The notes under the pieces: generated by a model
Told to the model about the DNA's origin: nothing
The model's database searches: none
The model's input: the letters and a program-made list of their open reading frames with translations, nothing else
Translations under genes and position numbers: made by a program
Shown: one piece after another, positions 17,663 through 30,700 of the stretch
Numbering within the stretch: the stretch's first letter is position 1
Layout of the letters: each line of letters opens with the position of its first letter
IMG/VR virus record: IMGVR_UViG_3300025083_000060
Coordinates: 1-50,470 of that record
Origin: a virus
Taxonomy: Duplodnaviria > Caudoviricetes
Strand: one strand, 5' to 3'
Length of the DNA: 50,470 nucleotides

Positions 17663-18898
17663 CTACGCAGAATACTGCGCTCTAGCTCCATCTAACTCGC
17701 AGGGTATCTTACCATGCCAGCCACCTTTTAACTTGTTCTTAGCCAGTACAAGATAGCGCTGATTGTCTACCTCATCCTCATCCCCTAGCTCTGCCATTGA
17801 AGGGTTCTTAGATATAAGAATCATGAGGTCTGCCTCTGCAGCCTTGCCTGTTTTACTCCCTTCAAGCATAGACTGGTCTACGTTAATCCTATTCTCTGCT
17901 GCTGCAGACAATTGGGACATCCATATAATTGCTGTGTTGTATTGCTTTGCAATGTTACGTGCATGAATAGCCGCATCCTTTAGGTACACGTCTGACTTGT
18001 CACTGGTACGAGGTGCAAACTTATCACCCATGTCAAGTACCACAATGTCAGGCTTGTAGTTTTTAATAGCCGCCTCTACCCATACCATGTCTTTACCCGT
18101 ACTGTCGTACAGATCTATGTTATCTCTAACACGTTGGTATCTTGTCGAAGCTAAAGGAAAGTTATCTTTAACTTCTTCCATAGTCAGGCTGGTAGCAGCA
18201 GTAAGATAGCGAAAAGCTACACGTTCATACGCCTCTTCATTACAAAGAATAAGACAACGTGCACCCTGCTTCGCAAAACCATTAGGCCCTGCAATAAGAG
18301 ATGCATGAAAGCTTGTCTTACCTGTGTTAGGCCGTGCGCCTACAATTAAGAAGTGCCCACCACTAATACCCTCAACCTTACGGTGTAAGCTAGGGATGTT
18401 GAACTTCCACTGAGATTGTTTCTCGTTAGCCTTGAGCAGTGTCTCAATAGATATATCACAGAAATTTAAGTTAAGGCTTGGGGTAAAGTCATCCTCGTAA
18501 TCACTCAGTAGTTTTCTCAGTGGCTCAAGACTTTTCTGTGTACCATTAACATAATCAAAACCTATGTTGGCTACCTCTTCCCCTACCATCTGCTGAAAAA
18601 GTTTAGACAAAACTTCCTTGGCGATAGGCTTAGACATAGGTTCTTCTTTGCGGATCTTGTTAAAGATTTCCTTATATACTGTCTTGTTAGATGTAGTAAG
18701 TGTTGCGTTGGAAGAGAAGAACAAGCCCTCTACTTCCGACACAGATAGATCCTTATCATACTCCTGCATAGCCATCTCTACGGTGTGTTTAATCTTTCTA
18801 ACATCTTTCGTAAAGAGTTTGTCTGGGGTACGGATACCCTTATGTCCCTCATAAAATTCTTTATTCATGAGAGATCTTATGAGTGCTAATTCCATCAT
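17663..18898 (-). CDS. DnaB/gp4-like replicative helicase
   Basis: Walker A GARPNTGKT; VVLD; SQL; AEADL; KNK. Confidence 0.9.
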   Translation of the reverse strand: MMELALIRSLMNKEFYEGHKGIRTPDKLFTKDVRKIKHTVEMAMQEYDKDLSVSEVEGLFFSSNATLTTSNKTVYKEIFNKIRKEEPMSKPIAKEVLSKLFQQMVGEEVANIGFDYVNGTQKSLEPLRKLLSDYEDDFTPSLNLNFCDISIETLLKANEKQSQWKFNIPSLHRKVEGISGGHFLIVGARPNTGKTSFHASLIAGPNGFAKQGARCLILCNEEAYERVAFRYLTAATSLTMEEVKDNFPLASTRYQRVRDNIDLYDSTGKDMVWVEAAIKNYKPDIVVLDMGDKFAPRTSDKSDVYLKDAAIHARNIAKQYNTAIIWMSQLSAAAENRINVDQSMLEGSKTGKAAEADLMILISKNPSMAELGDEDEVDNQRYLVLAKNKLKGGWHGKIPCELDGARAQYSA

Positions 18899-19440
18899 AC
18901 TTTATTGGCCTCGCTTCTTTCTATGGCACGTTTACGTTCTTCATCAGTCATGTCTGATATAGATCTACTCTTTACCTTTTCAATAAGCTCTAATGCATTT
19001 TGCCATGAAAGCTTGAACCATTCTTTAACGTAGTCATTGGACATAGATTTAGCAAGGTCGTGTACATCTGACTCTGCCTTACGTCTGTCACTGAAATGGG
19101 CATACCCTCGTAGGTGAAAGTCTCTGAAGGGACTAGACGTTTGATATGCATTAACCCTATCCTCAACATCAATAGCCATACCAATCTTAACCCAGTCACG
19201 CCATGCAGGATTAGTCAGAGCATATACATAGCCTTCCTTGGTGTTAGAGTACTTACCTAACCCTTCAAAGGCTGCATCATTAAAAGATTTATATCGTCCC
19301 GGCTTATGTAAGTCATGCGTCTGTGGAATATACTTACCGTTGACCCACATACGGCTCTCATTTCTTTTACGCATAGCATCTGGGCTATCCTTGTAATACT
19401 TATCACGGCCTGTCGTATCGTTATGTTCTTTCTTATACAT
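18895..19440 (-). CDS. GIY-YIG superfamily (T5orf172/MUG113-like) protein
   Basis: GYVYALTNPAWRDWVKIGMA...RVNAYQTSSP...E...H...EWF. Confidence 0.8.
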   Translation of the reverse strand: MYKKEHNDTTGRDKYYKDSPDAMRKRNESRMWVNGKYIPQTHDLHKPGRYKSFNDAAFEGLGKYSNTKEGYVYALTNPAWRDWVKIGMAIDVEDRVNAYQTSSPFRDFHLRGYAHFSDRRKAESDVHDLAKSMSNDYVKEWFKLSWQNALELIEKVKSRSISDMTDEERKRAIERSEANKV

Positions 19441-20718: not shown

Positions 20719-21503
20719 AATAACATTTCCCTTAACCGCTTTACATCGGATTGTAATCTGTATTTGATGTCATCGTCAAGTCTAAAAGCTTGTGTTCGTA
20801 TGCCTGTCCATGCCTCTACCTCTCTCCTATACTGAAGTGTCTTGGTCATGGCATCAGGGTCTAACGCTATGATAACATTAGAAAATTCTCCTATGTGTTC
20901 CATGTGTTCATGCCCTAGTGACGTACCCATAATAGCCAAGCCTGTGACTTGGGGTAGAAGCTTAGCAACTGTGATAGCACTTATAACATCCTCGACTATA
21001 ACTGCTGTACCGTTTGGTTTACCTACTATCCTTTTGTATACACTAGCCTTTCCGGTATATCTGTACCACTTTGGTATAGCATTGTGCAATGCTCTGCCTA
21101 CCGCATCAATGATAGAACCTTTGTGTTTAATAGGAAACACAGCACGTTTCTCACTTACATCATATAAGACACGCTCGCCTTGTAGATCCCACTTATCTAG
21201 GAATGAATCAAGTAACGTGTATTCCCGGCCAACAGGTTCAACCACATACTCAGGTATTACCATACACTCAGGCTCAGGCTTAACGTATGCCTCTGCAGTA
21301 AGCTTAGCTTGTATCTCTGCTGCTGTCAGGTTGACATGCACTGCACCTCTAGATCTACAGCCTAGCTTGTAGCAGTTGTATATCATGGAGCCAGATCTAT
21401 TTACTACAGTAAATGTATTGGAGCCACGGCATGACGGACAGTCAGATCTGTGTGTCTCACCATCACCCAAACTTAATGACTTAACGTAATCACTTATCGT
21501 CAT
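20715..21503 (-). CDS. DNA primase (Zn finger + TOPRIM)
   Basis: CPSC...CYKLGC zinc-binding domain; IVEDVISA, ALDPDA TOPRIM motifs. Confidence 0.9.
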   Translation of the reverse strand: MTISDYVKSLSLGDGETHRSDCPSCRGSNTFTVVNRSGSMIYNCYKLGCRSRGAVHVNLTAAEIQAKLTAEAYVKPEPECMVIPEYVVEPVGREYTLLDSFLDKWDLQGERVLYDVSEKRAVFPIKHKGSIIDAVGRALHNAIPKWYRYTGKASVYKRIVGKPNGTAVIVEDVISAITVAKLLPQVTGLAIMGTSLGHEHMEHIGEFSNVIIALDPDAMTKTLQYRREVEAWTGIRTQAFRLDDDIKYRLQSDVKRLREMLL

Positions 21504-22425
21504 TGGATCTCCTTTGCGCTAATGCAGCAGACGCACCACTGAATGTGTTTACCAAGTAAGGCTTAACACTTTGGGGGTTGGTGTGTCCACTGACTTGCAT
21601 AATACCTGCCATGTCTACGCCTGACTCTACCATCTCTGTAATGCCAGTACGCCGTAAGTCTCGTGCTTGTAGCACAAAAGGTAATCCTGCAGCTTCCTTA
21701 ACTTGATTGACTAGCACATGTATCTCTTGATCGTCGTAAGGTGTGTGTGCCCCTGCTCTGGGGAGTACACGAGGCGCTACGTAGTCTTGGAAGTCAAAGT
21801 CTTCCTTCTGCTCTCGGAGCATCTGACACAAGCTTTCATCTGTAATAGGTAAGTGTACATCGGCCCTACGTTTACTCTGCTCTAAGTCTAGGCGCTTGGC
21901 ATCTAAGTCTAGGTTGTCCCACCTGAGGAGACGCATGTCACCTACACGCTGTGCCCACTCGTATGCCATGTGAACGATCAGGCCAACGCTACGCCACTTC
22001 CACTCAGAGTATGCGGTATCTAAGAAGAGACGCACCTGATCCTTAGTCCATTTAATTTTACGAGGCTTATCCGTTGTACGTTGTAACAATGTCACAGGGT
22101 TAGAGAGTATAGCCTCATGTCGTATGGATGTATTGAATACAATACTGAGACACGTAGCCATATAGTTAGAGCTACGTACCCCATGCACGAGAAGCCACCT
22201 GTCATATGCGGTAGTCACATGTTTGAAACGTACATCCATAAGCTTGATGTTACCTAACTGCTTACCCTTTTGCACAGGGGTATCGCATACCTTAGATAGG
22301 TACATCATGTAATCTTTCTGAGTACGAGGACGCAATGCAGCAAACTTAGGTGTGTGCATATAGAAGTCACATGCTTGCTTTATTGTGTGCTTACCTTTTA
22401 GTTCTACTACATTGCGTTTCGCCAT
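21490..22425 (-). CDS. int: tyrosine recombinase / integrase
   Basis: QRVGD (R), QSKR (K), RDLRRT, SGH, PYL (Y) catalytic pattern. Confidence 0.9.
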   Translation of the reverse strand: MAKRNVVELKGKHTIKQACDFYMHTPKFAALRPRTQKDYMMYLSKVCDTPVQKGKQLGNIKLMDVRFKHVTTAYDRWLLVHGVRSSNYMATCLSIVFNTSIRHEAILSNPVTLLQRTTDKPRKIKWTKDQVRLFLDTAYSEWKWRSVGLIVHMAYEWAQRVGDMRLLRWDNLDLDAKRLDLEQSKRRADVHLPITDESLCQMLREQKEDFDFQDYVAPRVLPRAGAHTPYDDQEIHVLVNQVKEAAGLPFVLQARDLRRTGITEMVESGVDMAGIMQVSGHTNPQSVKPYLVNTFSGASAALAQRRSNDDK

Positions 22426-22437
22426 TGCGGTTCCTTT

Positions 22438-22527
22438 CTATAACAGTCCTGTGCCTAGCCCAAAGAATATGATAGCCATGATAAACATGAAGATGTAGTT
22501 CAATAGCTTATCAAAAAAGCGGCTCAT
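22438..22527 (-). CDS. 29-aa membrane peptide (not in ORF track)
   Basis: MSRFFDKLLNYIFMFIMAIIFFGLGTGLL; GGAG RBS. Confidence 0.55.
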   Translation of the reverse strand: MSRFFDKLLNYIFMFIMAIIFFGLGTGLL

Positions 22528-22684
22528 ACATATCTCCCTGTGCTATACGTCCTTTGATATACTCAAGCTCACGTTCCATGTTCTCTACGTCCTCGTCGAT
22601 CCACAATAGATCGTCAATGCTGCGAGCAAGATCATCGTGATATCGCTGTAAAGGTACAACATATTTATTACCTACACTTTCCAT
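22511..22684 (-). CDS. hypothetical protein, 57 aa (not in ORF track)
   Basis: MESVGNKYVVPLQRYHDDLARSIDDLLW...YEPLF; AAGGGA RBS. Confidence 0.7.
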   Translation of the reverse strand: MESVGNKYVVPLQRYHDDLARSIDDLLWIDEDVENMERELEYIKGRIAQGDMYEPLF

Positions 22685-22696
22685 TATCTATTCCCT

Positions 22697-23020
22697 TTAT
22701 CCGTTTACACAGTGGTCGTGGTTGATGTAGTAGGACACGCCAATCTCGTAGCTGTCATGATCGTACTGATACAGTGCAACCAAAGAGTCACATACATTCT
22801 TGACTAGCTTGTACTTATCTTCGTCATCTAGCTCATGGCTGTACCCAAAGTCTACAGGGATAGCTGTCAGTACATCTTTCCAGTGACTGTATATATCAGT
22901 ACCTGATTCAGTCTTCTCACCTGTCTTTTCGTAGCGCTGTTGAGTTACAAACACTACTGCATCGTGGTGATCCCATACTTTTACTTCTAAAGTTTGTGTC
23001 TCAATCTTCATATCTATCAA
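22697..23020 (-). CDS. hypothetical protein
   Basis: 107-aa ORF in early operon. Confidence 0.7.
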   Translation of the reverse strand: MIDMKIETQTLEVKVWDHHDAVVFVTQQRYEKTGEKTESGTDIYSHWKDVLTAIPVDFGYSHELDDEDKYKLVKNVCDSLVALYQYDHDSYEIGVSYYINHDHCVNG

Positions 23021-23358
23021 TCCATTCTTGTTACATAGTGTCCATTGTCTGTAGGTAATGCTACCATACCATAGGGGTAAAAGTAAACATCACCCTTCTT
23101 GAGTTTGACCTTAGCAATAGGATTAAGGTCATCATCTTCTGGATAGGTGTATGTACCATTAGGTAATACCTTACCCTTGAACTGGTACAGCTTACCGAAT
23201 CCATACGCTTCTGTCATGTGGTCTACAAGATCAAGACCTTCTTCGTCACCGCCATCTTCTACATAGTCGGCAACCCAATGCGGTAATAAACCCAACCACT
23301 CTACGAGTTGATCTTGTGTGTAGTCAGGGTAAGCTTCTGTGTTAAGTAGTAGTCTCAT
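23017..23358 (-). CDS. hypothetical protein
   Basis: 113 aa; coupled to neighbours; YTYPEDDDLNP...YFYPYG...VTRMD. Confidence 0.75.
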   Translation of the reverse strand: MRLLLNTEAYPDYTQDQLVEWLGLLPHWVADYVEDGGDEEGLDLVDHMTEAYGFGKLYQFKGKVLPNGTYTYPEDDDLNPIAKVKLKKGDVYFYPYGMVALPTDNGHYVTRMD

Positions 23359-24128
23359 AGTACATTCTCCATTGTTAATTCTTTACTGTCGGACGGTCCG
23401 TCACCAGAGTTGAACTCATAAACTGCACGAGCAAAGCCACGGGGTGTAGCACTGCGAATGTTCTTAGTCTTAACAGACTTACCACCAAGTTTCAAGTGTT
23501 GTCTGCTGTGCCCTTGCTCTGGCTCTACTGGGTCAGTCCACGGCATAGTGAACCCATTGCCTGTCCAGAGGCATGTCTTCTTAGGGTATGCATCACGAGG
23601 TGCAATGTAGTCAGGCCACAAGGGATGCTCTGCCTCACTGTCAGCGATGTACTTGCCGTACTCATAGGGGTGGAATGAGTAGTTAGGTTTACGCCACAAC
23701 GTAGACAACACACTGACAGGATTCTCTATGAAGTAAGGTACGCCTAGCTCATTGAAGAACTGCGAGCACATCATAGCATAGCTTGCTGCTTTAGTCTGAA
23801 ACTCAGGGTCACGCTTAGCCTTAGCCTTGAAGTGTGGCGCACCTGATACAGCCAAGTCAGTACACACAGGAAACGCCATGCCGAATACAACACTCTCAAA
23901 CTGAAAGTTTACAGCTATCCTGTTGAGAGTGCTTTGATCGTGAAGGTCTGCATGAACATAACGGATCAGACCACCGCCCTCAAAATTATCTATACATATT
24001 TTTTCTGCATCATGCTGTATGTCAAAGGCATAGCAAATATATCCTGCTTCTGCCCACGGCTTGAGTGCCTCACCTGTGTAGTCATATAGGCTTATGACAT
24101 ACTTACCTGCGTTAGGATTCGTCATCAT
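23355..24128 (-). CDS. phage-type DNA cytosine methyltransferase-like protein
   Basis: ISLYDYTG (motif I-like), FPVCTD (catalytic PC-like), IENPV (motif VI), KKTCLW, RSATPRGF; start moved to MMTNP. Confidence 0.75.
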   Translation of the reverse strand: MMTNPNAGKYVISLYDYTGEALKPWAEAGYICYAFDIQHDAEKICIDNFEGGGLIRYVHADLHDQSTLNRIAVNFQFESVVFGMAFPVCTDLAVSGAPHFKAKAKRDPEFQTKAASYAMMCSQFFNELGVPYFIENPVSVLSTLWRKPNYSFHPYEYGKYIADSEAEHPLWPDYIAPRDAYPKKTCLWTGNGFTMPWTDPVEPEQGHSRQHLKLGGKSVKTKNIRSATPRGFARAVYEFNSGDGPSDSKELTMENVL

Positions 24129-24267
24129 CAAAGTTCCCTTCTTCAAATATAACTTTATACCCTGCATCTAATAGTTCATGCGCTCTGTCAAGAGCATTCT
24201 CACGATCAAGAGTCCACATCTTATTATAATAGAAACCATCCTTGCCTATCGTAGCTACGTAGTACAT
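24112..24267 (-). CDS. hypothetical protein, 51 aa (not in ORF track)
   Basis: MYYVATIGKDGFYYNKMWTLDRENAL...DDDES; GAGG RBS. Confidence 0.65.
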   Translation of the reverse strand: MYYVATIGKDGFYYNKMWTLDRENALDRAHELLDAGYKVIFEEGNFDDDES

Positions 24268-24268
24268 C

Positions 24269-24634
24269 TCACGATACCTCTTCAAACATTTCTAAAGCTT
24301 GATTGTGTGTAAGCTTCCACTGCTTGTCACTAGTCAAAGACTTAACTTGCCACGGCATTTTCTTAGCGTTGGTGTTGTACCCTACGAGAGTAACCTTCTG
24401 CCCACCAATCTCAGAGATACGAGTAGTGTCTAACTTGTAGAACTGTGCAAAATGTGTAAGCGCAATCTGCTCTTGTGTATCCGCACCATCAAGCAATACC
24501 TGTACCTTGTATGTAGCTTCACCGCCTGAGTAGGAGCAGTTACCTACCTTGATAGTCACATCGTGTATGCCAGCATTCTCTAATGCTTCCTGCATTGCTT
24601 CACGTATTTGTCTTAGCTTTTGTTTGTCAAACAT
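24269..24634 (-). CDS. hypothetical early protein
   Basis: 121 aa; AAAGGA RBS. Confidence 0.8.
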   Translation of the reverse strand: MFDKQKLRQIREAMQEALENAGIHDVTIKVGNCSYSGGEATYKVQVLLDGADTQEQIALTHFAQFYKLDTTRISEIGGQKVTLVGYNTNAKKMPWQVKSLTSDKQWKLTHNQALEMFEEVS

Positions 24635-24704
24635 AATGTAATCCTTTCAATGAGTTAGTGACGGACGGTCCGACAGTAAAGCCAGACCGCCCTGCTAGGG
24701 AGTG

Positions 24705-24932
24705 CTACCCTGCGAAGTGTTGCAAGCGGCGCTCAGTGTTACGGTTACGCTTGTGCTCAAAGTACACAGTGCGTTTGCCTAAGTGATAGGCAGTCATGCA
24801 ATCGCCTAGCTCACGGCGCAAGCCACGGCTGACCACCTTACGCTTACGTGTCAGGCCCTTGATGCCAGCGAAGTTGAAGCGAAAACCTTTAGTACCATCG
24901 TTAAGTTTTTTGGTTGCGAATAATACGAACAT
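24705..24932 (-). CDS. hypothetical basic early protein
   Basis: 75 aa; AGGAG RBS; R/K-rich. Confidence 0.75.
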   Translation of the reverse strand: MFVLFATKKLNDGTKGFRFNFAGIKGLTRKRKVVSRGLRRELGDCMTAYHLGKRTVYFEHKRNRNTERRLQHFAG

Positions 24933-24933
24933 A

Positions 24934-25071
24934 TCATTTCTCCTGTGTGAGTTCGTTACGGATCTGGGTTAGTAGTTCTTTTAGTTTGGCATCGTTTGCC
25001 ATACGTGTACTTGGCAGTATTTTTTCACACATGTCAAGTACCTTCAAGTTAAGTGCATTAGAAATGCTCAT
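24934..25071 (-). CDS. hypothetical protein, 45 aa (not in ORF track)
   Basis: MSISNALNLKVLDMCEKILP...LTQEK; GGAGG RBS; ATGA overlap. Confidence 0.65.
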   Translation of the reverse strand: MSISNALNLKVLDMCEKILPSTRMANDAKLKELLTQIRNELTQEK

Positions 25072-25349
25072 GCTGTAAGACCTCCGTCAATCACGATAAG
25101 CTTAGGTTTCTTAGCAACAGCGCTGGGCTTTGTCAAGAGGCAGTAGATATCTGCATAGAAAGCAGGGTCGTGATCCTTGAGGTGTAGTGACGGACGGTCC
25201 GACAGTACATCCCACCACAGCATGTCGTATTCTGTAGACAACATGTCGTATATGTTAGATGCATTCTCTTCACTGCGACATGCAGCGACAAGGCAGGTAT
25301 CTGCCTCATCGTAATCCATAACGCATACATAGTGCATGTTTGGTTTCAT
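25068..25349 (-). CDS. hypothetical early protein
   Basis: 93 aa; AAAGGA RBS. Confidence 0.75.
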   Translation of the reverse strand: MKPNMHYVCVMDYDEADTCLVAACRSEENASNIYDMLSTEYDMLWWDVLSDRPSLHLKDHDPAFYADIYCLLTKPSAVAKKPKLIVIDGGLTA

Positions 25350-25369
25350 TAAGTAATATCCTTTCGTTG

Positions 25370-25984
25370 TTATGTCATTACTACAGCATCAACATGATAG
25401 CGTGACACTGCATCACCAGTAGGCAGGGACTTGTTCATACCACCACGATCAGCAACAAAGTTGCACCATGTGTCCCACCAGTATTCGGAACCCTTGCGGC
25501 GGCATAGCTTGACGTACTCACGTATCTTTTTGAGACGTACTTCTTGCGATGCTTTCTTGTTGATACGCAAGGCTGACTCACTCAACCCTAACGCCCTGAC
25601 ATTGTGTCTGTCAAGACATGCTACTTGAAAGCCTAGCATCTGACCAATGAAGCCAGCCTTGACCATACCAATGCTAGGTATACGCATAAACAGATCTACC
25701 ACAGCTTGTGCACCATCAATGGTGTCACATCCAGCAGTCTCACGTATGTTAAGCATGAGTGTGTGCAACTCTACCTTGTGCTCTTGTGCATAGGTAATGC
25801 CTTGAGCCTTAGTACTGCTGACCCACTTGGACATGATGCCATGCAGCTTGATAGACTTGCGTTGCTCTATCACACGAGACAACGGCATGTTGATCGTGCA
25901 TAAGGTGAACTCAATCACGTCATACAATCCATCAGGGGATTGCAATGCGTGTTGTACGATTTCTGTGCAGTCACGTTGGTACAT
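25370..25984 (-). CDS. helix-hairpin-helix DNA glycosylase-like (Ogg-type) protein
   Basis: LFMRIPSIGMVKAGF...VACLDRHNVR resembles HhH plus catalytic Asp of Ogg-type glycosylases. Confidence 0.65.
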   Translation of the reverse strand: MYQRDCTEIVQHALQSPDGLYDVIEFTLCTINMPLSRVIEQRKSIKLHGIMSKWVSSTKAQGITYAQEHKVELHTLMLNIRETAGCDTIDGAQAVVDLFMRIPSIGMVKAGFIGQMLGFQVACLDRHNVRALGLSESALRINKKASQEVRLKKIREYVKLCRRKGSEYWWDTWCNFVADRGGMNKSLPTGDAVSRYHVDAVVMT

Positions 25985-26027
25985 AGGGAAGCACTCCTGT
26001 TGTTATGTCGGATCGTCCGACAGTAAG

Positions 26028-26444
26028 TTAAGTCGTTGATAAGTAACGTATTTTAGGTTTGATGTCTGTATCAACCACCTTAGATAAGCATACCATATCT
26101 GATTTGTCAATAGGTTCCAGAGTTTTGCTATCAACAAAGCTTGTGAATTTGTACGGGTTGTACGTTGCCTTGCCATGTAAGCGCCAAGCTGGACCCATCA
26201 ATGGGTCACTATCATCTCGCTTGCTGTAGCCACTGACCTGTATGAAATCACCAAGCGTACCACGCACAAAGGCATGCACATTTTTCTTGCCCTCACGTAG
26301 TACACGCTTACGTCCAGACTGACGCACCACAAATTGCGCATCATCTATCCACACTTCATCAGCGTGAAAGAGTACACGCCCTGTCTTAGTATTACGGACA
26401 GAGAATGTATGCTTGTGCAGGTTCCAGTAAACTTCAACTCGCAT
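26028..26444 (-). CDS. conserved phage hypothetical protein
   Basis: VYWNLHK...FSV...FVVRQSGRKRVLREGKKNVHAFVRG...YNPYK; a pattern I recognise from phage hypotheticals. Confidence 0.8.
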   Translation of the reverse strand: MRVEVYWNLHKHTFSVRNTKTGRVLFHADEVWIDDAQFVVRQSGRKRVLREGKKNVHAFVRGTLGDFIQVSGYSKRDDSDPLMGPAWRLHGKATYNPYKFTSFVDSKTLEPIDKSDMVCLSKVVDTDIKPKIRYLSTT

Positions 26445-26457
26445 GGTAGTCTCCCAT

Positions 26458-26916
26458 TTATGCAGATTGTTTTAGTGACGGACGGTCCGACACAACACCA
26501 TTACATACTAGGGATGAGCGCCATCCGTTAAGTTTCAATTCTATGTCAAGCTCCTGCCATCCAAAGGACAAAACCACGAAGGCTCTACGTAATTGTAGAC
26601 ACAGCACGATGTCACCCACCGACATACTAGGGGAGGGCCTGATGGTCGTGCGCCTAAGCTTGCCACTGCCGTAGCCATTGCACTCATCAAAGATCCACTC
26701 AAGTACGTCATCCATGTCATGACTAGTCTGCGCTGTCATCACACCCATATGTAAGAAAGATGTCGGCTCATAGAAATCTTTAGCTAAGGCTTTCTGTATT
26801 ACATCCACGCCATTTCCTGCAGGTAAACTACGCAAGGACACATACATATCTATGTCATCCTGCCTAATGATTTCACTCTTGGGTTGATAGACTAAGAACG
26901 ATTGCGATGCGGTCAT
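26458..26916 (-). CDS. hypothetical protein, possible YodL-like domain
   Basis: LEWIFDECN...SMSVGDIV...FVVLSFGW resembles the YodL-type signature. Confidence 0.55.
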   Translation of the reverse strand: MTASQSFLVYQPKSEIIRQDDIDMYVSLRSLPAGNGVDVIQKALAKDFYEPTSFLHMGVMTAQTSHDMDDVLEWIFDECNGYGSGKLRRTTIRPSPSMSVGDIVLCLQLRRAFVVLSFGWQELDIELKLNGWRSSLVCNGVVSDRPSLKQSA

Positions 26917-26920
26917 GGTA

Positions 26921-27100
26921 TTACTCCTCTTGCGGGTTAAAATAGGGCATTGACAAGTTATCCATGAGGATATCTTTCACTTCTCCACCAGTCATGCCAA
27001 GCATTCCAGCATATGTCAAGATAGAAATGTTAGGGTTGAGATCATAGAAGTCACGTATCTCATCATCAGTCCACTCATGTATGTATTTTAGATCAGGCAT
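26921..27100 (-). CDS. hypothetical protein, 59 aa
   Basis: start re-assigned to MPDLKY after AAAAGGAATCATGAC RBS. Confidence 0.75.
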   Translation of the reverse strand: MPDLKYIHEWTDDEIRDFYDLNPNISILTYAGMLGMTGGEVKDILMDNLSMPYFNPQEE

Positions 27101-27373
27101 GTCATGATTCCTTTTCAGTGATTTCATTTTGTTAGGTCCAACGTTGGACTTAAGTTTCAATTGAGCAGGTAAAAATACACTTGGGTTGTAGACTGTCGGC
27201 CTATCTCCACACCATTGATTATGTATAGTGAAAGTTAAATATAACTTCCAAGTGTACTTATATCTGCCTAACAAACAGGCCAGTATTTGCTAAGGCTGCT
27301 GGGCCACGCCATTTTACGAAGGCTTTTGAAGTGTCGGACGGTCCGACAGTAATGCCAAACCGCCCCATGATTG

Positions 27374-27625
27374 TCAATAGATTTCGTCTAGCTCTTCATC
27401 AAAGCCGAACTCTTCGTCCCACTCTTCGGGTGTCATACCTGACATCAAGAACTCACGCTGTTCTGCTGACAGGTCAGGCATAACATTCTGTATTAGATCA
27501 CCTGATGCAAGCCAGTACTCAATCACACCTTGAGTGGTAGGCAAGAGCATGTTGTTTATCTTGCCAGTCATCATAGACTTTTTGTGCACCAAAACTTTAT
27601 TCTCTGCTATATGTTCTATCTGCAT
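27374..27625 (-). CDS. hypothetical protein, 83 aa
   Basis: start re-assigned to MQIEH after the same AAAAGGAATCATGAC RBS; LIQNVMPDLSAEQREFLMSGMTPEEW. Confidence 0.8.
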   Translation of the reverse strand: MQIEHIAENKVLVHKKSMMTGKINNMLLPTTQGVIEYWLASGDLIQNVMPDLSAEQREFLMSGMTPEEWDEEFGFDEELDEIY

Positions 27626-27695
27626 GTCATGATTCCTTTTTACTTGGTTGTTTTGAAGTTGAAGTGTCGGACGATCCGACAGTAGAAGTCCCATA

Positions 27696-27724
27696 ACTGT
27701 CAGCCATCCATGCTAGATTGTCAA
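27696..27724 (-). promoter_or_regulatory. candidate early sigma70 promoter just upstream of a palindrome copy
   Basis: TTGACA-N17-GACAGT on minus strand; palindrome at 27665-27681 immediately downstream. Confidence 0.5.
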
Positions 27725-27832
27725 GGGGTTTGGGATGTTTGCGCTGCTGCATATTACACAGCCACCTGCTACGCCACACCTTATCAGCACGGCGAGCGTA
27801 CCTGTCACGTCTGCTCACACCTAACATGTACG

Positions 27833-27961
27833 TCACCCCCCATGCATGGCATAGAGCATGCCACAAAAGAACATCATACCTGACGTGCTGACGTAGGTAA
27901 GAAAGTAAGCAAAGTTTTGAAGGCGAGTAGGTCTAAGAATGTATTTTGTACGATGGCGCAT
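27833..27961 (-). CDS. small hydrophobic protein, 42 aa (not in ORF track)
   Basis: MRHRTKYILRPTRLQNFAYFLTYVSTSGMMFFCGMLYAMHGG; same ACAAGGAATTGACCC leader as 28037-28276. Confidence 0.6.
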   Translation of the reverse strand: MRHRTKYILRPTRLQNFAYFLTYVSTSGMMFFCGMLYAMHGG

Positions 27962-28036
27962 GGGTCAATTCCTTGTGTGTGTGTTTGAAGTGTCGGACGG
28001 TCCGACAGTAAAGCCAGACCGTTGATACTGGTATCA

Positions 28037-28276
28037 TTACCAAGCTTCTGATTGGATCTCTTTGCGATGGTCATCATAAAGCTTTACAGCTTTGTGCATA
28101 CGCTTGAGGGCGGTTTCATACTTGCGACAACCTTGTATTTCTTGAAGTATTTCTTTGAGGGTCCAACATTCAACCAGCACATCCCAACCGTCTTCTTCGT
28201 AATGCGCCTTAGCGTGATCCTGAATTTGTGTGGCAAAGTAAAGCGGGACATTAAATGTTTTTTCTAGATCTGTCAT
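28037..28276 (-). CDS. hypothetical early protein
   Basis: 79 aa; HAKAHYEEDGWDVLVECW; strong RBS. Confidence 0.8.
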   Translation of the reverse strand: MTDLEKTFNVPLYFATQIQDHAKAHYEEDGWDVLVECWTLKEILQEIQGCRKYETALKRMHKAVKLYDDHRKEIQSEAW

Positions 28277-28346
28277 TGGGTCAATTCCTTGTATGTATGT
28301 GAGAGAGAGTGATGCGCCCCGCTGTGATGCAGGGCGCTTGACTGTG

Positions 28347-28934
28347 TTAGCCTACGATTTCAGCGTGTAGGGCCTTGAGGAAAGCGCTGGTGTTCAACCC
28401 GTTGCTTTCGAGGGCGGCTTTTACGAATGTCGCAAGCTCCGCTTCAGTCTGAAATTGCTTGGTGTCGGACGGTCCGTCAGTAGCAGCCTCTGGCTTGGCT
28501 TGGGCTTTTCCTGCAGATGTATTACCTGCAGACTTAGGCGCTTTCGGCTCCGCTGGCTTGCTTGCCTTGGTGATCCGCTTACGGATGGCGCTCATCCCTA
28601 GACCGTCAAGTTTCCCGTCAGTGTTTAAGCGCTGCACAAGCTCCCAGTTTTCCGCAATCTTTTTGCAATCATTGTAATCTTGCCGACTAATAGTCGTATG
28701 CTGAGCCATTGCTTGGCCGAAAAGCTTGTCAGATTTGTACAAGGGACGAAGCTGGATCACAAGCAATCCGATTTCTTTGTAGCAATCCAATTGCTGCTCT
28801 TGCAAGAGCCACATACGATCATGAACCGCTTCCATCTGAGCAAAGGCGGCGCTTGCTGTGAACGTCTGACCGTTGTGTGTTACCTTGCCGTCCAAGTGTA
28901 CTTTTGCGTTTGTGTTTGTTTTTGCGTTTGTCAT
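28347..28934 (-). CDS. first early gene, hypothetical protein (195 aa)
   Basis: start re-assigned to MTNAKT after AAAAGGAA RBS; GC-richer codons than rest of window. Confidence 0.8.
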   Translation of the reverse strand: MTNAKTNTNAKVHLDGKVTHNGQTFTASAAFAQMEAVHDRMWLLQEQQLDCYKEIGLLVIQLRPLYKSDKLFGQAMAQHTTISRQDYNDCKKIAENWELVQRLNTDGKLDGLGMSAIRKRITKASKPAEPKAPKSAGNTSAGKAQAKPEAATDGPSDTKQFQTEAELATFVKAALESNGLNTSAFLKALHAEIVG

Positions 28935-28984
28935 CGAAGTATTCCTTTTTTGCTGTGGCCGGTGTTGGCCGTTTCGATGCAATC

Positions 28985-29013
28985 AATCTGGCCGATGGTC
29001 GAGGGAATGTCAA
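28985..29013 (-). promoter_or_regulatory. candidate first early sigma70 promoter
   Basis: TTGACA-N17-CAGATT on minus strand, ~50 nt before the first gene start. Confidence 0.6.
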
Positions 29014-29102
29014 CGGCTTTTGGTGCGCATTATGCGCAAGGAAAAGGAAGCAGTGTCGGACGGTCCGACAGTAGGGTAGGGTAAAAGCAGAACATCCGGT
29101 GA

Positions 29103-29117
29103 GAACGAATCAGGAAC
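29103..29117. promoter_or_regulatory. candidate alphaproteobacterial LexA box
   Basis: GAAC-gaatcag-GAAC (GAAC-N7-GAAC) in the divergent control region. Confidence 0.4.
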
Positions 29118-29542
29118 AGCCTCGTGCGTGATCATGTGTGTGATCATATGTGCATGCATGTGTGTTTGTGCATAAGCGATGCATGATCGCATCACGCTGC
29201 AGATGTGCGCATAGCAGGCCTATATGTGCGGCTTGCAGATACACAATCGGTAGAAAAAGCGTGTAAAAACAAGCGTTTAGCCCTATGCACATGCGCAGAA
29301 TGCACACACACGGCCCCACATACACCCCCCTGCGTGGGCCACCCCCCCGGTGTACGTACGTATATACATACTCTGCAACAGAACTGGATTTTACTTTTCA
29401 TGTACGAGCACTTACACACAACTATACCGTGTAAACAGTAATGTTATACTATAACAATGCTTAAAGCTGTGCATAAAGTTGTAACATAGATCACGTTTTG
29501 TTACAATTGTTACAAATGCATCACTTTTTGGCGAAACAAGGA

Positions 29543-29570
29543 TTGACAATGGGGGTGCTTTGTGTAAAAC
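29543..29570 (+). promoter_or_regulatory. candidate late-arm sigma70 promoter
   Basis: TTGACA-N16-TAAAAC. Confidence 0.55.
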
Positions 29571-29579
29571 TACGTAGTA

Positions 29580-29850
29580 GTAGTAGGTAAGTTAAACTTA
29601 AAAGTTAAACTCTTTAGAATACAACTAATAATACTTAACTTAAATAACTAAACTATATACAGTTACACTTATATCATTGGACTTAGGAAGAGTTAGACAT
29701 TAAAGTTAAACTTTAATGTTAGACTTACAAGTTGACAGCTTTATATTTGTATGATAGTATACTTATATGAGTGGTATTGATAATTATAACTATAAATATA
29801 CCACTATACTTTAACTTAACGTGTGACTTTAAAGTTTAACTATCACTAAT
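29580..29850. repeat. AT-rich region with AAGTTAAACT repeats (possible origin or packaging/terminal region)
   Basis: AAGTTAAACT at 29589, 29602, 29703; inverted copy at 29832. Confidence 0.65.
29732..29760 (+). promoter_or_regulatory. candidate late-arm sigma70 promoter
   Basis: TTGACA-N17-TAGTAT. Confidence 0.6.
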
Positions 29851-29886
29851 TTTTTAGTCGCACGTAATTTCCCTTGTAATTACCCC

Positions 29887-30150
29887 TTGACTCTTATGAA
29901 AAAACAAGTAAAACTATACCCTAGTGAGGATGTATTAGTACAATTCTATAGTGCTTTAGCGTCTAATAACTCTGATGCACTTAAAAAGGTACATATTCCT
30001 AAGAGTGATGTATTCTATGTACGTGAAAAGATATTTCAGGACACTGGAGAGAAGTATACGTTAGATAGAGTTGAAAGAGCTATGTACTTAGAGGGTATGA
30101 TTGACTCTAGAGACGTACTTGATCCTAAAAGAAAGAGGGACTGGGAATGA
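29887..30150 (+). CDS. hypothetical protein, first gene of late arm
   Basis: 87 aa; likely ATG start at 29896. Confidence 0.75.
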   Translation: MTLMKKQVKLYPSEDVLVQFYSALASNNSDALKKVHIPKSDVFYVREKIFQDTGEKYTLDRVERAMYLEGMIDSRDVLDPKRKRDWE

Positions 30151-30350
30151 CTGTAGCAATGGAACGTATTTTAGCGTGGAAAATTATGCCACGTTTAATG
30201 ATGTTAGTTATGACTGTTATGTATATCCGCTGTATTGAGTGGGCCTTATCACAACCAGACTTGTCTACCCAACAATCAGCTTTAATATCTGTAGTTACTG
30301 GTGCTATGACTGGTGCTTTTGCTGTATGGCTAGGAAATGAGAACAAATGA
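30147..30350 (+). CDS. small 2-TM membrane protein (lysis module)
   Basis: two hydrophobic segments; coupled to holin-like gene. Confidence 0.7.
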   Translation: MTVAMERILAWKIMPRLMMLVMTVMYIRCIEWALSQPDLSTQQSALISVVTGAMTGAFAVWLGNENK

Positions 30351-30700
30351 TTGGTCAAATCTTAGGAGCAGTTGGTGGATTAGCTACAACATACTTGGAT
30401 GGCAAGGTAGCAATACAGAAAGCTAACGCAGAAATCAAAGTAAAGCAAGCTACTGGTGAGATTGACTGGGATTTAGCTGCAATTCAAGCTACTCAGAATA
30501 GCTGGAAAGACGAATGGATAACATTACTTTTCAGTATTCCTCTTATTCTGGCGTTTTGTGGTGACTGGGGGAACAGTATAGTACAAGCTGGCTTTGCTGC
30601 ACTGGAGTCTATGCCTACGTGGTATCAATACAGCCTTGGTGGTATAGTATCAGCCAGTATAGGCATTCGTTCTGTAAGTAAATTCTTTGGGAAAAAATAA
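30347..30700 (+). CDS. putative holin (3TM/GTA-holin-like)
   Basis: SWKDEWITLLFSIPLILAF...PTWYQY...IGIRSVSKF; directly upstream of endolysin. Confidence 0.7.
   Translation: MIGQILGAVGGLATTYLDGKVAIQKANAEIKVKQATGEIDWDLAAIQATQNSWKDEWITLLFSIPLILAFCGDWGNSIVQAGFAALESMPTWYQYSLGGIVSASIGIRSVSKFFGKK

Follow-up and report, generated by a model that had tools for sequence, protein, structure and literature searches.

The early region of an HMO-2011-type marine podophage of ~55 kb carries a family of short, near-palindromic repeats, and four of the repeat copies are preceded by a G/U-rich arm which, on the transcribed strand, pairs with the 5' part of the repeat. The phage is represented by IMG/VR virus record IMGVR_UViG_3300025083_000060, a stretch of 50,470 bp (estimated to be 91% complete), which is referred to below, over its whole length, as the window. 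The reading we favor, tentatively, is that the repeated motif is a regulatory site recognized by a protein and at the same time a recombination junction, and that in one phage lineage the arm would add to it a constitutive stem-loop between cistrons of the early mRNA.

The core of the motif, GTCGGAC-S-GTCCGAC, was found ten times in the window (at most two mismatches), every time within positions 23388-29069; all ten copies are thus confined to the 5.7-kb early region. None is expected by chance, as shuffled sequences gave no match. The basic unit is a near-palindrome of 20-21 bp which reads ACTGTCGGAC-C-GTCCGACACT on the transcribed strand, with tACTGTCGGACCGTCCGaCACT as the fuller consensus. 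The region under study is the beginning of a leftward (minus-strand) operon: a first gene of 211 aa is followed by many small open reading frames (ORFs) without assigned function.

Three minus-strand copies occur in a long form, at 24657-24677 (core 24660-24674), 27330-27350 (core 27333-27347) and 27989-28009 (core 27992-28006); copies are named below by the first position of the core. An initial annotation of this DNA had described each of the three as following a stop codon and as extended upstream by a short segment complementary to the 5' part of the palindrome, and the minus-strand sequence proved to be exactly as it was given there, with the arm 8-14 nt downstream of the stop codon. The arm of the 24660 copy, GGGCGGUCUGGC (24681-24692), begins 12 nt after the stop codon at 24705-24707 and pairs with GUCGGACCGUCC over 12 bp, including three G-U pairs, around a 6-nt loop. 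The arm of the 27333 copy, GGGCGGUUUGGCA (27353-27365), lies 8 nt after the stop codon at 27374-27376 and forms 13 bp, four of them G-U, with a 4-nt loop. For the 27992 copy the arm is ACGGUCUGGC (28013-28022), located 14 nt after the stop codon at 28037-28039; it forms 10 bp with two G-U pairs and a 6-nt loop. A fourth arm, absent from the earlier list, belongs to the minus-strand copy at 27663-27683 (core 27666-27680): GGAUGGCUGACAGU (27696-27709) forms 14 bp with three G-U pairs, one bulge and a 12-nt loop, and resembles a partial inverted copy of the motif. The 24660 and 27992 copies end 22 nt before the ATG at 24634 and 27 nt before the ATG at 27961, respectively, and a leader with a ribosome binding site (RBS) follows directly in both, as had been described; at the 27333 copy this arrangement is seen in relatives only, because of an insertion in the window at that place.

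The minimum-energy folds of 66-nt minus-strand RNAs were arm-paired at these three copies, and the extension was found to pair fully with the 5' part of the palindrome by means of G-U wobbles. The fold of the 24660 copy had 12 pairs (-24.4 kcal/mol, z -3.2), that of the 27333 copy 13 pairs (-21.2 kcal/mol, z -2.5) and that of the 27992 copy 10 pairs (-18.7 kcal/mol, z -3.3). For the 27666 copy, 14 pairs were obtained at -18.9 kcal/mol. When each 45-nt flank was tested for duplex formation with the 21-nt core against 300 dinucleotide shuffles, the arms gave p values of 0.003 (24660), 0.000 (27333), 0.007 (27992) and 0.000 (27666). Hence four of the ten window copies have an upstream arm on the sense strand at p <= 0.007; in the other three combinations of flank and strand none of the ten reached p <= 0.01, the nearest misses being the downstream flank of 24660 on the sense strand (p 0.017) and that of 27992 on the antisense strand (p 0.023). 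The copy at 29055 has a weak, non-significant arm (p 0.13-0.15).

The hairpin had been said to form well on the minus strand alone. This was correct for the 24660 and 27333 copies, for which the duplex energies of the plus and minus strands were -11.8 versus -23.6 kcal/mol and -12.6 versus -22.3 kcal/mol, but not for the 27992 copy, in which the plus strand was only slightly weaker (-17.6 versus -18.7 kcal/mol). The preference is due to the two to four G-U pairs in each arm: every non-Watson-Crick position in the four arms is a G-U pair on the sense strand, there are no mismatches and there is a single bulge. The differences between copies preserve pairing, as previously observed; they are one-sided (G-U to A-U and C-G to U-G) and correspond to single transitions between paralogous copies.

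Folding of both alternatives showed that the arm hairpin and the palindrome's own hairpin exclude each other. A two-state RNA/single-stranded DNA (ssDNA) switch had been proposed; in such a switch the two hairpins would alternate, possibly flipped by a protein, and regulate the downstream gene. The palindrome's own hairpin was forced through its four invariant pairs and the sequence refolded. The cost in the sense RNA was 14.4 kcal/mol for the 24660 copy, 9.9 for 27333, 8.9 for 27992 and 6.7 for 27666, and in the antisense RNA it was 0-5.8 kcal/mol. On minus-strand RNA the arm state is therefore favored by 6.7-14.4 kcal/mol. The arm is also transcribed first: being 5' of the palindrome, it is present in the transcript before synthesis reaches the palindrome's 3' half. 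Given these two properties, the RNA would sit in one state. Under DNA parameters the two states are close in energy, as a switch would call for, and both are weak (about -8.0 to -6.8 versus about -7.4 to -7.0 kcal/mol). However, neither state is supported by covariation, most motif copies have no arm, and the next RBS, 15-25 nt past the stem, is unpaired in either state, hence no obvious difference in output would result; neither state contains a terminator. We consider a switch very improbable. The extension described in the initial annotation is real and paired far beyond shuffled flanks, and it may form a structured RNA element.

A terminator scan called none at the four arm sites. No T-run follows the stems, and the sequence after each of them is GAC/GUC-ACU-(UCAAA/AACUC). 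Comparison of 22000-30500, on both strands, with Rfam gave no match at E <= 1.

Motif copies mark the junctions at which gene cassettes differ between near-identical phages. The close relatives used in this comparison were five viral contigs and several metagenome contigs, 95-98% identical to the window over the region. In relative L093, the left side of the 27333 copy is fused to the right side of the copy at 26477, which amounts to a clean motif-to-motif deletion of everything between them. The 27333 copy has four distinct right-hand junctions among phages of 95-98% identity, where it is followed by the insert present in the window, by one gene, by another gene or by the next motif. Two of the three insertions or deletions that distinguish the window from L091 or L093 abut a motif. 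Partial or tandem motif copies were also present in relatives: a tandem at L124:7292/7328 and half-motifs in L117, L118, L123, L125 and L129.

Through the conserved first early gene, 40 related loci were gathered, together with loci containing exact matches to the motif. The type of motif was found to follow the first early gene. In the clade whose first gene is at least 36% identical to that of the window the motif is GTCGGA-N3-TCCGAC (group A); in the clade with 27-33% identity it is GTCGAA-N2-TTCGAC (group B); and in the clade with 24-26% identity a different near-palindrome, ATTGACGGAATTCAGTCAAC, is present. The changes between clades are symmetric, GGA/TCC becoming GAA/TTC with a center one base shorter. 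Within the first clade two further pairs are exchanged symmetrically, one from G-C to C-G ([A/C]TCGGAC...GTCCGAG) and one, in the flank, from T-A to A-T. The four innermost pairs (6/16 to 9/13) are symmetric in 51/51 group A copies and in 70/72 group B copies. At positions 5/17 pairing is often lost through a change on just one side, which gives the motif a polarity. Copies are found in either orientation to the genes, at times within one genome: most window copies share a polarity and one is reversed, and in other genomes all are reversed.

Some further observations concern sequences similar to the motif. Single exact matches to the 15-mer core were present in G+C-rich viral contigs, most of 4-11 kb and two of ~22 kb. 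These copies end 41-43 nt before an RBS and a ATGAAATC... start, and they belong to three sequence groups (L018, L022, L024, L035, L043, L048, L085; L009, L058, L074, L083; L015, L069, L072, L076, L081, L082, L087); they are probably chance matches. In a distant relative (L113:14100-14160, equal to L096:9150-9215) a motif copy follows a tRNA-like T-arm and 3' end (GGTTCGAGTCC...). In the window insert after the 27333 copy, positions 27132-27153 form a perfect 22-bp palindrome, TTAGGTCCAACGTTGGACTTAA, whose core, GTCCAAC/GTTGGAC, resembles a further half-site variant of the motif; the close relatives do not have this insert.

The six remaining copies of the window are distributed as follows. 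The first motif copy is at 29055-29069 on the minus strand; 49 nt downstream of its center, and before the first early gene, there is a TTGACA (29013-29008). The minus-strand copies at 25189-25203, 26007-26021 and 26477-26491 have no arm: the first lies inside a 93-aa ORF (25068-25349), the second 6 nt past the stop of ORF 26028-26444, with 19 nt from the end of the 21-mer to the ATG at 25984, and the third before the ATG at 26444. Another minus-strand copy (28464-28478) is in-frame in the disordered linker of the first early gene, where it encodes ...TDGPSDT..., and the copy at 23388-23402, of opposite flank polarity, is located within the 3' end of the methyltransferase gene (...GDGPSD...).

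The positions of the copies relative to genes were counted for 125 distinct copies from the window and 33 related loci, accepting ORFs of at least 35 aa. An RBS and a start codon were found within 120 nt of the motif in 81/125 copies, and in 71 of these 81 the start lay less than 40 nt from the motif end (median 20 nt), in the related uncultured phages mostly 10-39 nt past it. A perfect TTGACA stands before the first early gene in all 11 group A loci, with the center of one copy 46-49 nt upstream of it; the sequence between copy and hexamer has diverged among these loci and the spacing has been kept. This TTGACA would be part of the early promoter. A few copies lie in-frame in genes. The one in the linker of the first gene recurs in other lineages (L188, L199, L147, L161, L182 and L193) with an adapted peptide, ...TVGPSDTK... 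in place of the ...TDGPSDT... of the window; the linker is disordered and Lys/Ala/Pro-rich, and in the second clade its peptide is altered in keeping with the motif version found there. Selection thus seems to act on the nucleotide sequence inside a coding region.

The first early gene (28347-28982, minus strand) is kept in every motif-bearing relative found, and the presence and type of motif track it, the two diverging in step. The gene gave no tblastn match in the phage collection, and it is absent, along with the motif, from five cultured HMO-2011-type phages. A search for GTCGRA-N2-3-TYCGAC in CRP-9, CRP-1, CRP-13, CRP-345 and HMO-2011 gave one match in one of the five records, equal to the reversed control, and the motif is taken as absent from them. 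Among the matches listed, the literature on HMO-2011-type phages held nothing relevant to the motif. The 211-aa product is a candidate for the protein that binds the motif. Its predicted structure is helical (predicted local distance difference test, pLDDT, 71), with the disordered linker and a small C-terminal domain. Neither Pfam nor PHROG families matched the gene, its profile gave nothing but noise at E > 0.5 against Protein Data Bank (PDB) sequences, and Foldseek found no match to the model in the PDB at E <= 0.001. A wide VIA structure search with the model returned Z <= 6.4, with KorB/ParB-type domains among unrelated helical proteins; these predicted matches are a lead only. The same holds for the protein atlas, in which unnamed viral clusters, DUF3102 (56% of members; 0.91) and one T4-type translational repressor cluster (0.90) were returned.

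Fixed distance from the promoter, operator-like length, indifference to orientation and symmetric changes that track an early protein together point to a site for a phage protein. Other identities for the motif were tried and rejected. A promoter for a phage-encoded RNA polymerase was discarded because the large ORFs include no such polymerase and the motif occurs in both orientations; the motif end, ...CACTAA, resembles T7-type promoters. A sigma-70 promoter within the motif was discarded as well, since none of the 11 promoter-like sites which a scan found in 22000-30500 lies on a motif or arm. LexA-type and CRP-type operators do not fit in spacing, judged by their consensus sequences. The core also contains CGGWCCG, presumably a restriction site, and a reading of the copies as a cluster of such sites was set aside.

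If the motif is an operator, the arm might itself act on DNA, as a weak auxiliary half-operator for a regulator that binds cooperatively at selected junctions. The motif is operator-like and one copy stands at a fixed distance from the early promoter in the 11 group A loci; in the 24660, 27333 and 27992 copies arm and motif are 21 bp apart from center to center (two helical turns); and the right half of the arm, GTCTGGC, resembles GTCCGAC. However, the arms deviate from the motif at C14/C15, positions which are invariant in 51/51 true group A copies. The arms are therefore poor candidates for a protein half-site, and the same changes keep the RNA pairing. In addition, the 27992 copy has not kept the left half, the spacing of the 27666 arm is different, and the strand-specific G-U pattern would be left unexplained. 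A half-operator thus seems unlikely.

For two of the four sites, an internal promoter of sigma-70 type could also account for the sequence upstream of the motif. The 27353-27365 arm sits in a 17-nt spacer after a TTGACA which overlaps the upstream stop codon; TTGACAATC precedes both the 27333 and the 27666 copies, with 17 nt to CATTAC or GACAGT; and a TTGACA followed, after 17-18 nt, by a TAnnnT-like hexamer is found upstream of copies in relatives (e.g. L112:10227, L112:8129 and L171). Arm regions would then be spacer and -10, and their complementarity to the motif incidental. Nevertheless, the consensus scan called no promoter at these sites, and the -10 candidates are poor in both. TTGACA is present upstream of the 27333 and 27666 copies only, the arms of 24660 and 27992 having no -35-like hexamer, and the pairing statistics would remain unexplained. 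We regard this interpretation as improbable.

The distribution of the arm was analyzed with the duplex test on 127 context-distinct pattern matches (200 shuffles each). These comprised the ten true window copies, 115 copies from relatives and two spurious matches of the window to the group B pattern. In the relatives, p <= 0.01 was reached by 3, 2, 2 and 1 of the 115 copies in the four categories of flank and strand, with ~1.15 expected in each. A scan of metagenomes for the motif in this orientation gave 69 loci with 62 distinct contexts, and arms were present only in the orthologues of the window's four sites. The arm is thus a feature of one phage lineage and not of the wider repeat family. 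Within that lineage, four to six distinct orthologues per site showed no internal change in the arm, apart from one terminal G to A in one contig. By comparison, 2 of the 12 loop columns of 27666 are variable, and changes are numerous immediately upstream of the 24660 arm. In some relatives, separate G+C-rich hairpins occupy the position between stop codon and motif; folds of the relatives' flanks at z <= -2 were found upstream of 20/115 copies versus downstream of 10/115. Two distant relatives (L105:8335 and L112:8661) have a downstream arm of like build, with 12 pairs and a 6-nt loop (p 0.02-0.045); an advantage of the sense strand for this arm was rejected, the difference being only ~1 kcal/mol.

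These observations are consistent with the following mechanism. A protein of the phage would recognize the basic unit, probably in duplex DNA rather than in a hairpin, and the unit would serve as an operator or roadblock common to the early genes. Because it is repeated, recombination at it would also bring about the gain, loss and exchange of early-gene cassettes. The long form has a G/U-rich arm of 10-14 nt in the gap from the upstream stop codon to the motif; this arm, which probably derives from a partial inverted copy of the motif, would have been kept to provide the 5' strand of a stem-loop. On the polycistronic early mRNA, the arm would pair with the 5' two-thirds of the motif and form one stable stem-loop of -19 to -24 kcal/mol without a U-tract. 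Given that the arm precedes the palindrome in transcription and that its stem is by far the more stable of the two hairpins, this structure would be constitutive and not a switch. It might protect the 3' end of the upstream cistron or act as a barrier to processing, with the downstream RBS left free; judged from its sequence and position, a role as stabilizer, processing site or insulator is possible.

Several results weigh against this mechanism. The invariance of the arms says little, because the relatives are only 2-5% diverged. The covariation analysis, by which the initial annotation expected the structure to be judged, was negative: in six arm-bearing sequences none of 12 pairs had changed on both sides (covariation term +1.2), although the power is low at this divergence. 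Three of the four arms are paralogues sharing CGGTYTGGCWTTACT, and the fourth, that of 27666, has the upstream TTGACAATC in common with the 27333 copy; therefore there may have been only one or two independent origins of the arm, and the pattern of G-U pairs all on one strand rests on roughly four to seven substitutions. The arms of relatives are near the chance level (8/460 tests at p <= 0.01 versus ~4.6 expected), and the downstream arm of L105 and L112 is about equally stable on both strands (-18.1 versus -17.1 kcal/mol). Six of the ten window copies have no arm; since arms are absent from most copies, the motif works without one. With regard to the binder, the structural matches of the first-gene product to the DNA-binding domains of KorB, Spo0J, ParB and VirB are weak (Z 5.5, 5.4, 4.8, 4.3 and 3.8). 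As for the motif itself, positions +/-9 are a conserved non-pair in 47/51 group A and 56/72 group B copies (C-C, G-G, A-G or A-A), and the center is 3 nt long in one clade and 2 nt in the other; taken together, these two properties make an uneasy fit to a simple symmetric dimer on duplex DNA.

The arm could alternatively be a neutral relic: cassette recombination would have left a piece of the motif, in inverted orientation, beside a full copy, and this piece would have spread with the repeat and now be decaying. The G-U pattern would then reflect transition bias and chance, and the hairpin would have no selected function. In agreement with this, the arms resemble the motif (GGGCGGTCTGGC matches GGACGGTCCGAC at 9/12 positions, and the 27666 arm keeps ...GACAGT), partial and tandem copies occur in relatives, recombination at the motif is frequent, no covariation was detected and the arms are limited to one lineage. 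On the other hand, every deviation from complementarity is a sense-strand G-U and never an A-C or other mismatch, and the arms have no internal substitution in four to six orthologues per site while the 27666 loop and the sequence upstream of 24660 vary, albeit in small samples. A relic is a possible explanation of the arm, nearly as likely as the functional stem-loop we favor.

For the motif, the +/-9 non-pair, the difference of one base in the center and the closeness to the RBS are more easily reconciled with a hairpin of RNA or ssDNA than with duplex DNA bound by a symmetric dimer. The motif may accordingly be read as a folded single strand, a short hairpin in which one position near the base must stay unpaired, with a loop of variable length and a stem that covaries among clades. 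Its reader is proposed to be either a dedicated regulator or nuclease of early mRNA acting beside each RBS, or a hairpin-directed, integron-like recombination system for cassettes; neither kind would have a precedent in tailed phages. The arm would then be a built-in anti-hairpin which permanently masks four copies on the transcript and exempts those junctions. We hold such a reading to be doubtful, with a small chance of being correct, and retain the protein site on duplex DNA with a constitutive stem-loop as the interpretation that we prefer.

Outside the repeats, the window has the gene content described here. The minus strand encodes ribonucleotide reductase, a family-A DNA polymerase, a DnaB-type helicase, ThyX, a tyrosine integrase and a DNA methyltransferase, and the plus strand endolysin, terminase, portal and major capsid protein. 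The major capsid protein shares 78-81% identity with its counterparts in Roseobacter phages CRP-9, CRP-13 and CRP-1 and 72.5% with the one in Puniceispirillum phage HMO-2011. A DNA search with 23000-30000 found no near match in the phage collection, and in a search for distant matches the methyltransferase gene alone was matched. Scans of the early ORFs against Pfam and PHROG found no DNA- or RNA-binding family. Directly upstream of the helicase gene in the replication block, at 18895-19440 on the minus strand, lies a gene for a T5orf172/MUG113-domain protein, which may be a homing-endonuclease-like insertion; thyX is farther upstream. Between the 27992 and 27666 copies (27627-27961, minus strand), a 42-aa ORF overlaps a 79-aa ORF with a TTG start, and the latter runs through the 27666 motif; the two may represent a gene that is frameshifted or in decay.

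The divergent early and lysis/late operons are separated by ~750 bp of A+T-rich non-coding DNA (29130-29886). This segment holds repeated words, among them AAGTTTAAC and TTAAGTT, and a CA/TG-rich stretch at 29133-29170, and it could be an origin or a control region. Next to it, at 29103-29117 on the minus strand and ~35 nt upstream of the first motif copy (29055), there is a direct repeat GTTC-N7-GTTC, arranged like the alphaproteobacterial LexA box. It is the single match in the window, where ~1.1 would be expected by chance. Diverged relatives have this repeat in the corresponding position, L166 and L198 without any difference and L197, L164 and L100 with one mismatch.

The motif family marks the early region in a clade of abundant uncultured marine HMO-2011-type phages. 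It provides a handle on the regulation and shuffling of their "host take-over" genes and, in the annotation of such contigs, can be used to locate the starts of early genes and the limits of cassettes. A functional arm stem-loop would illustrate the conversion of a repeated regulatory site, by a phage and at selected gene junctions, into a structure of the mRNA.

Several known systems resemble parts of this arrangement. In T7-type early operons, RNA hairpins and RNase III sites occur between cistrons. The arm stem-loop is similarly placed, between early cistrons, after a stop codon and before the next RBS, but RNase III usually needs roughly two helical turns and the arm stems, of 10-14 bp, are shorter than that. 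Operators of KorB and parS sites of ParB are palindromic, with an S at the center; about a dozen sites are present, some upstream of promoters and some within genes, including the gene of the binder itself. The motif shares with them the palindromic form, the central S and copies before a promoter and within the gene of the candidate binder. In contrast, the first-gene product has no ParB N-terminal domain, and the Z scores of its predicted structure are within the range common for unrelated helical bundles. Integron attC sites are imperfect palindromes with conserved unpaired bases, which a dedicated integrase recombines in the form of a folded single strand. The conserved +/-9 non-pair, the cassette polymorphism and the tyrosine integrase gene would be the facts in favor of an attC-like site, although attC is far longer than a site of 20-21 bp.

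The stoperators of mycobacteriophages are many copies of one protein site spread across transcribed regions, mostly in short intergenic gaps and with an orientation bias; they are asymmetric, 13-14 bp long and bound by a monomeric repressor. The motif is like them in its spread copies and orientation bias and in belonging to a temperate phage (integrase at 21490-22425), and unlike them in being near-palindromic. Those of cluster A mycobacteriophages (PMC9283540) are among the closest known kinds. In cluster K mycobacteriophages, the start-associated sequence (SAS) is a 13-bp asymmetric sequence containing the RBS, and its extended form (ESAS) has 17-bp imperfect inverted repeats with a 4-13 bp spacer just upstream (PMC3203893). 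Both these repeats and the motif accompany the translation starts of some genes only, function is unassigned in both, and one half of ESAS is better conserved than the other, as is the case here, where the 5/17 pair is broken on one side only (PMC3203893). The motif differs in being a single compact near-palindrome with a center of 2-3 nt which occurs in either orientation.

The PeSL (promoter-early stem-loop) cassettes of T4-type phages consist of a strong sigma-70-like promoter and a stem-loop shown to terminate transcription (PMC2839356, PMC4122927). Two likenesses to the motif stand out: both are short conserved intergenic cassettes which include a stem-loop and lie between small variable early ORFs, and in both recombination between copies explains insertions, deletions and replacements in near-identical phages (PMC2839356, PMC4122927). 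Unlike PeSL, the motif has no recognizable -35/-10 pair, its arm hairpin has no U-tract, and its conserved part is a near-palindrome of 20-21 bp beside an RBS. The features of PeSL that were found here are thus the stem-loop and the recombination end points, and not the promoter. Taken against all these systems, the motif family is an undescribed case of a known kind of phage intergenic repeat, and it is more interesting than the arm.

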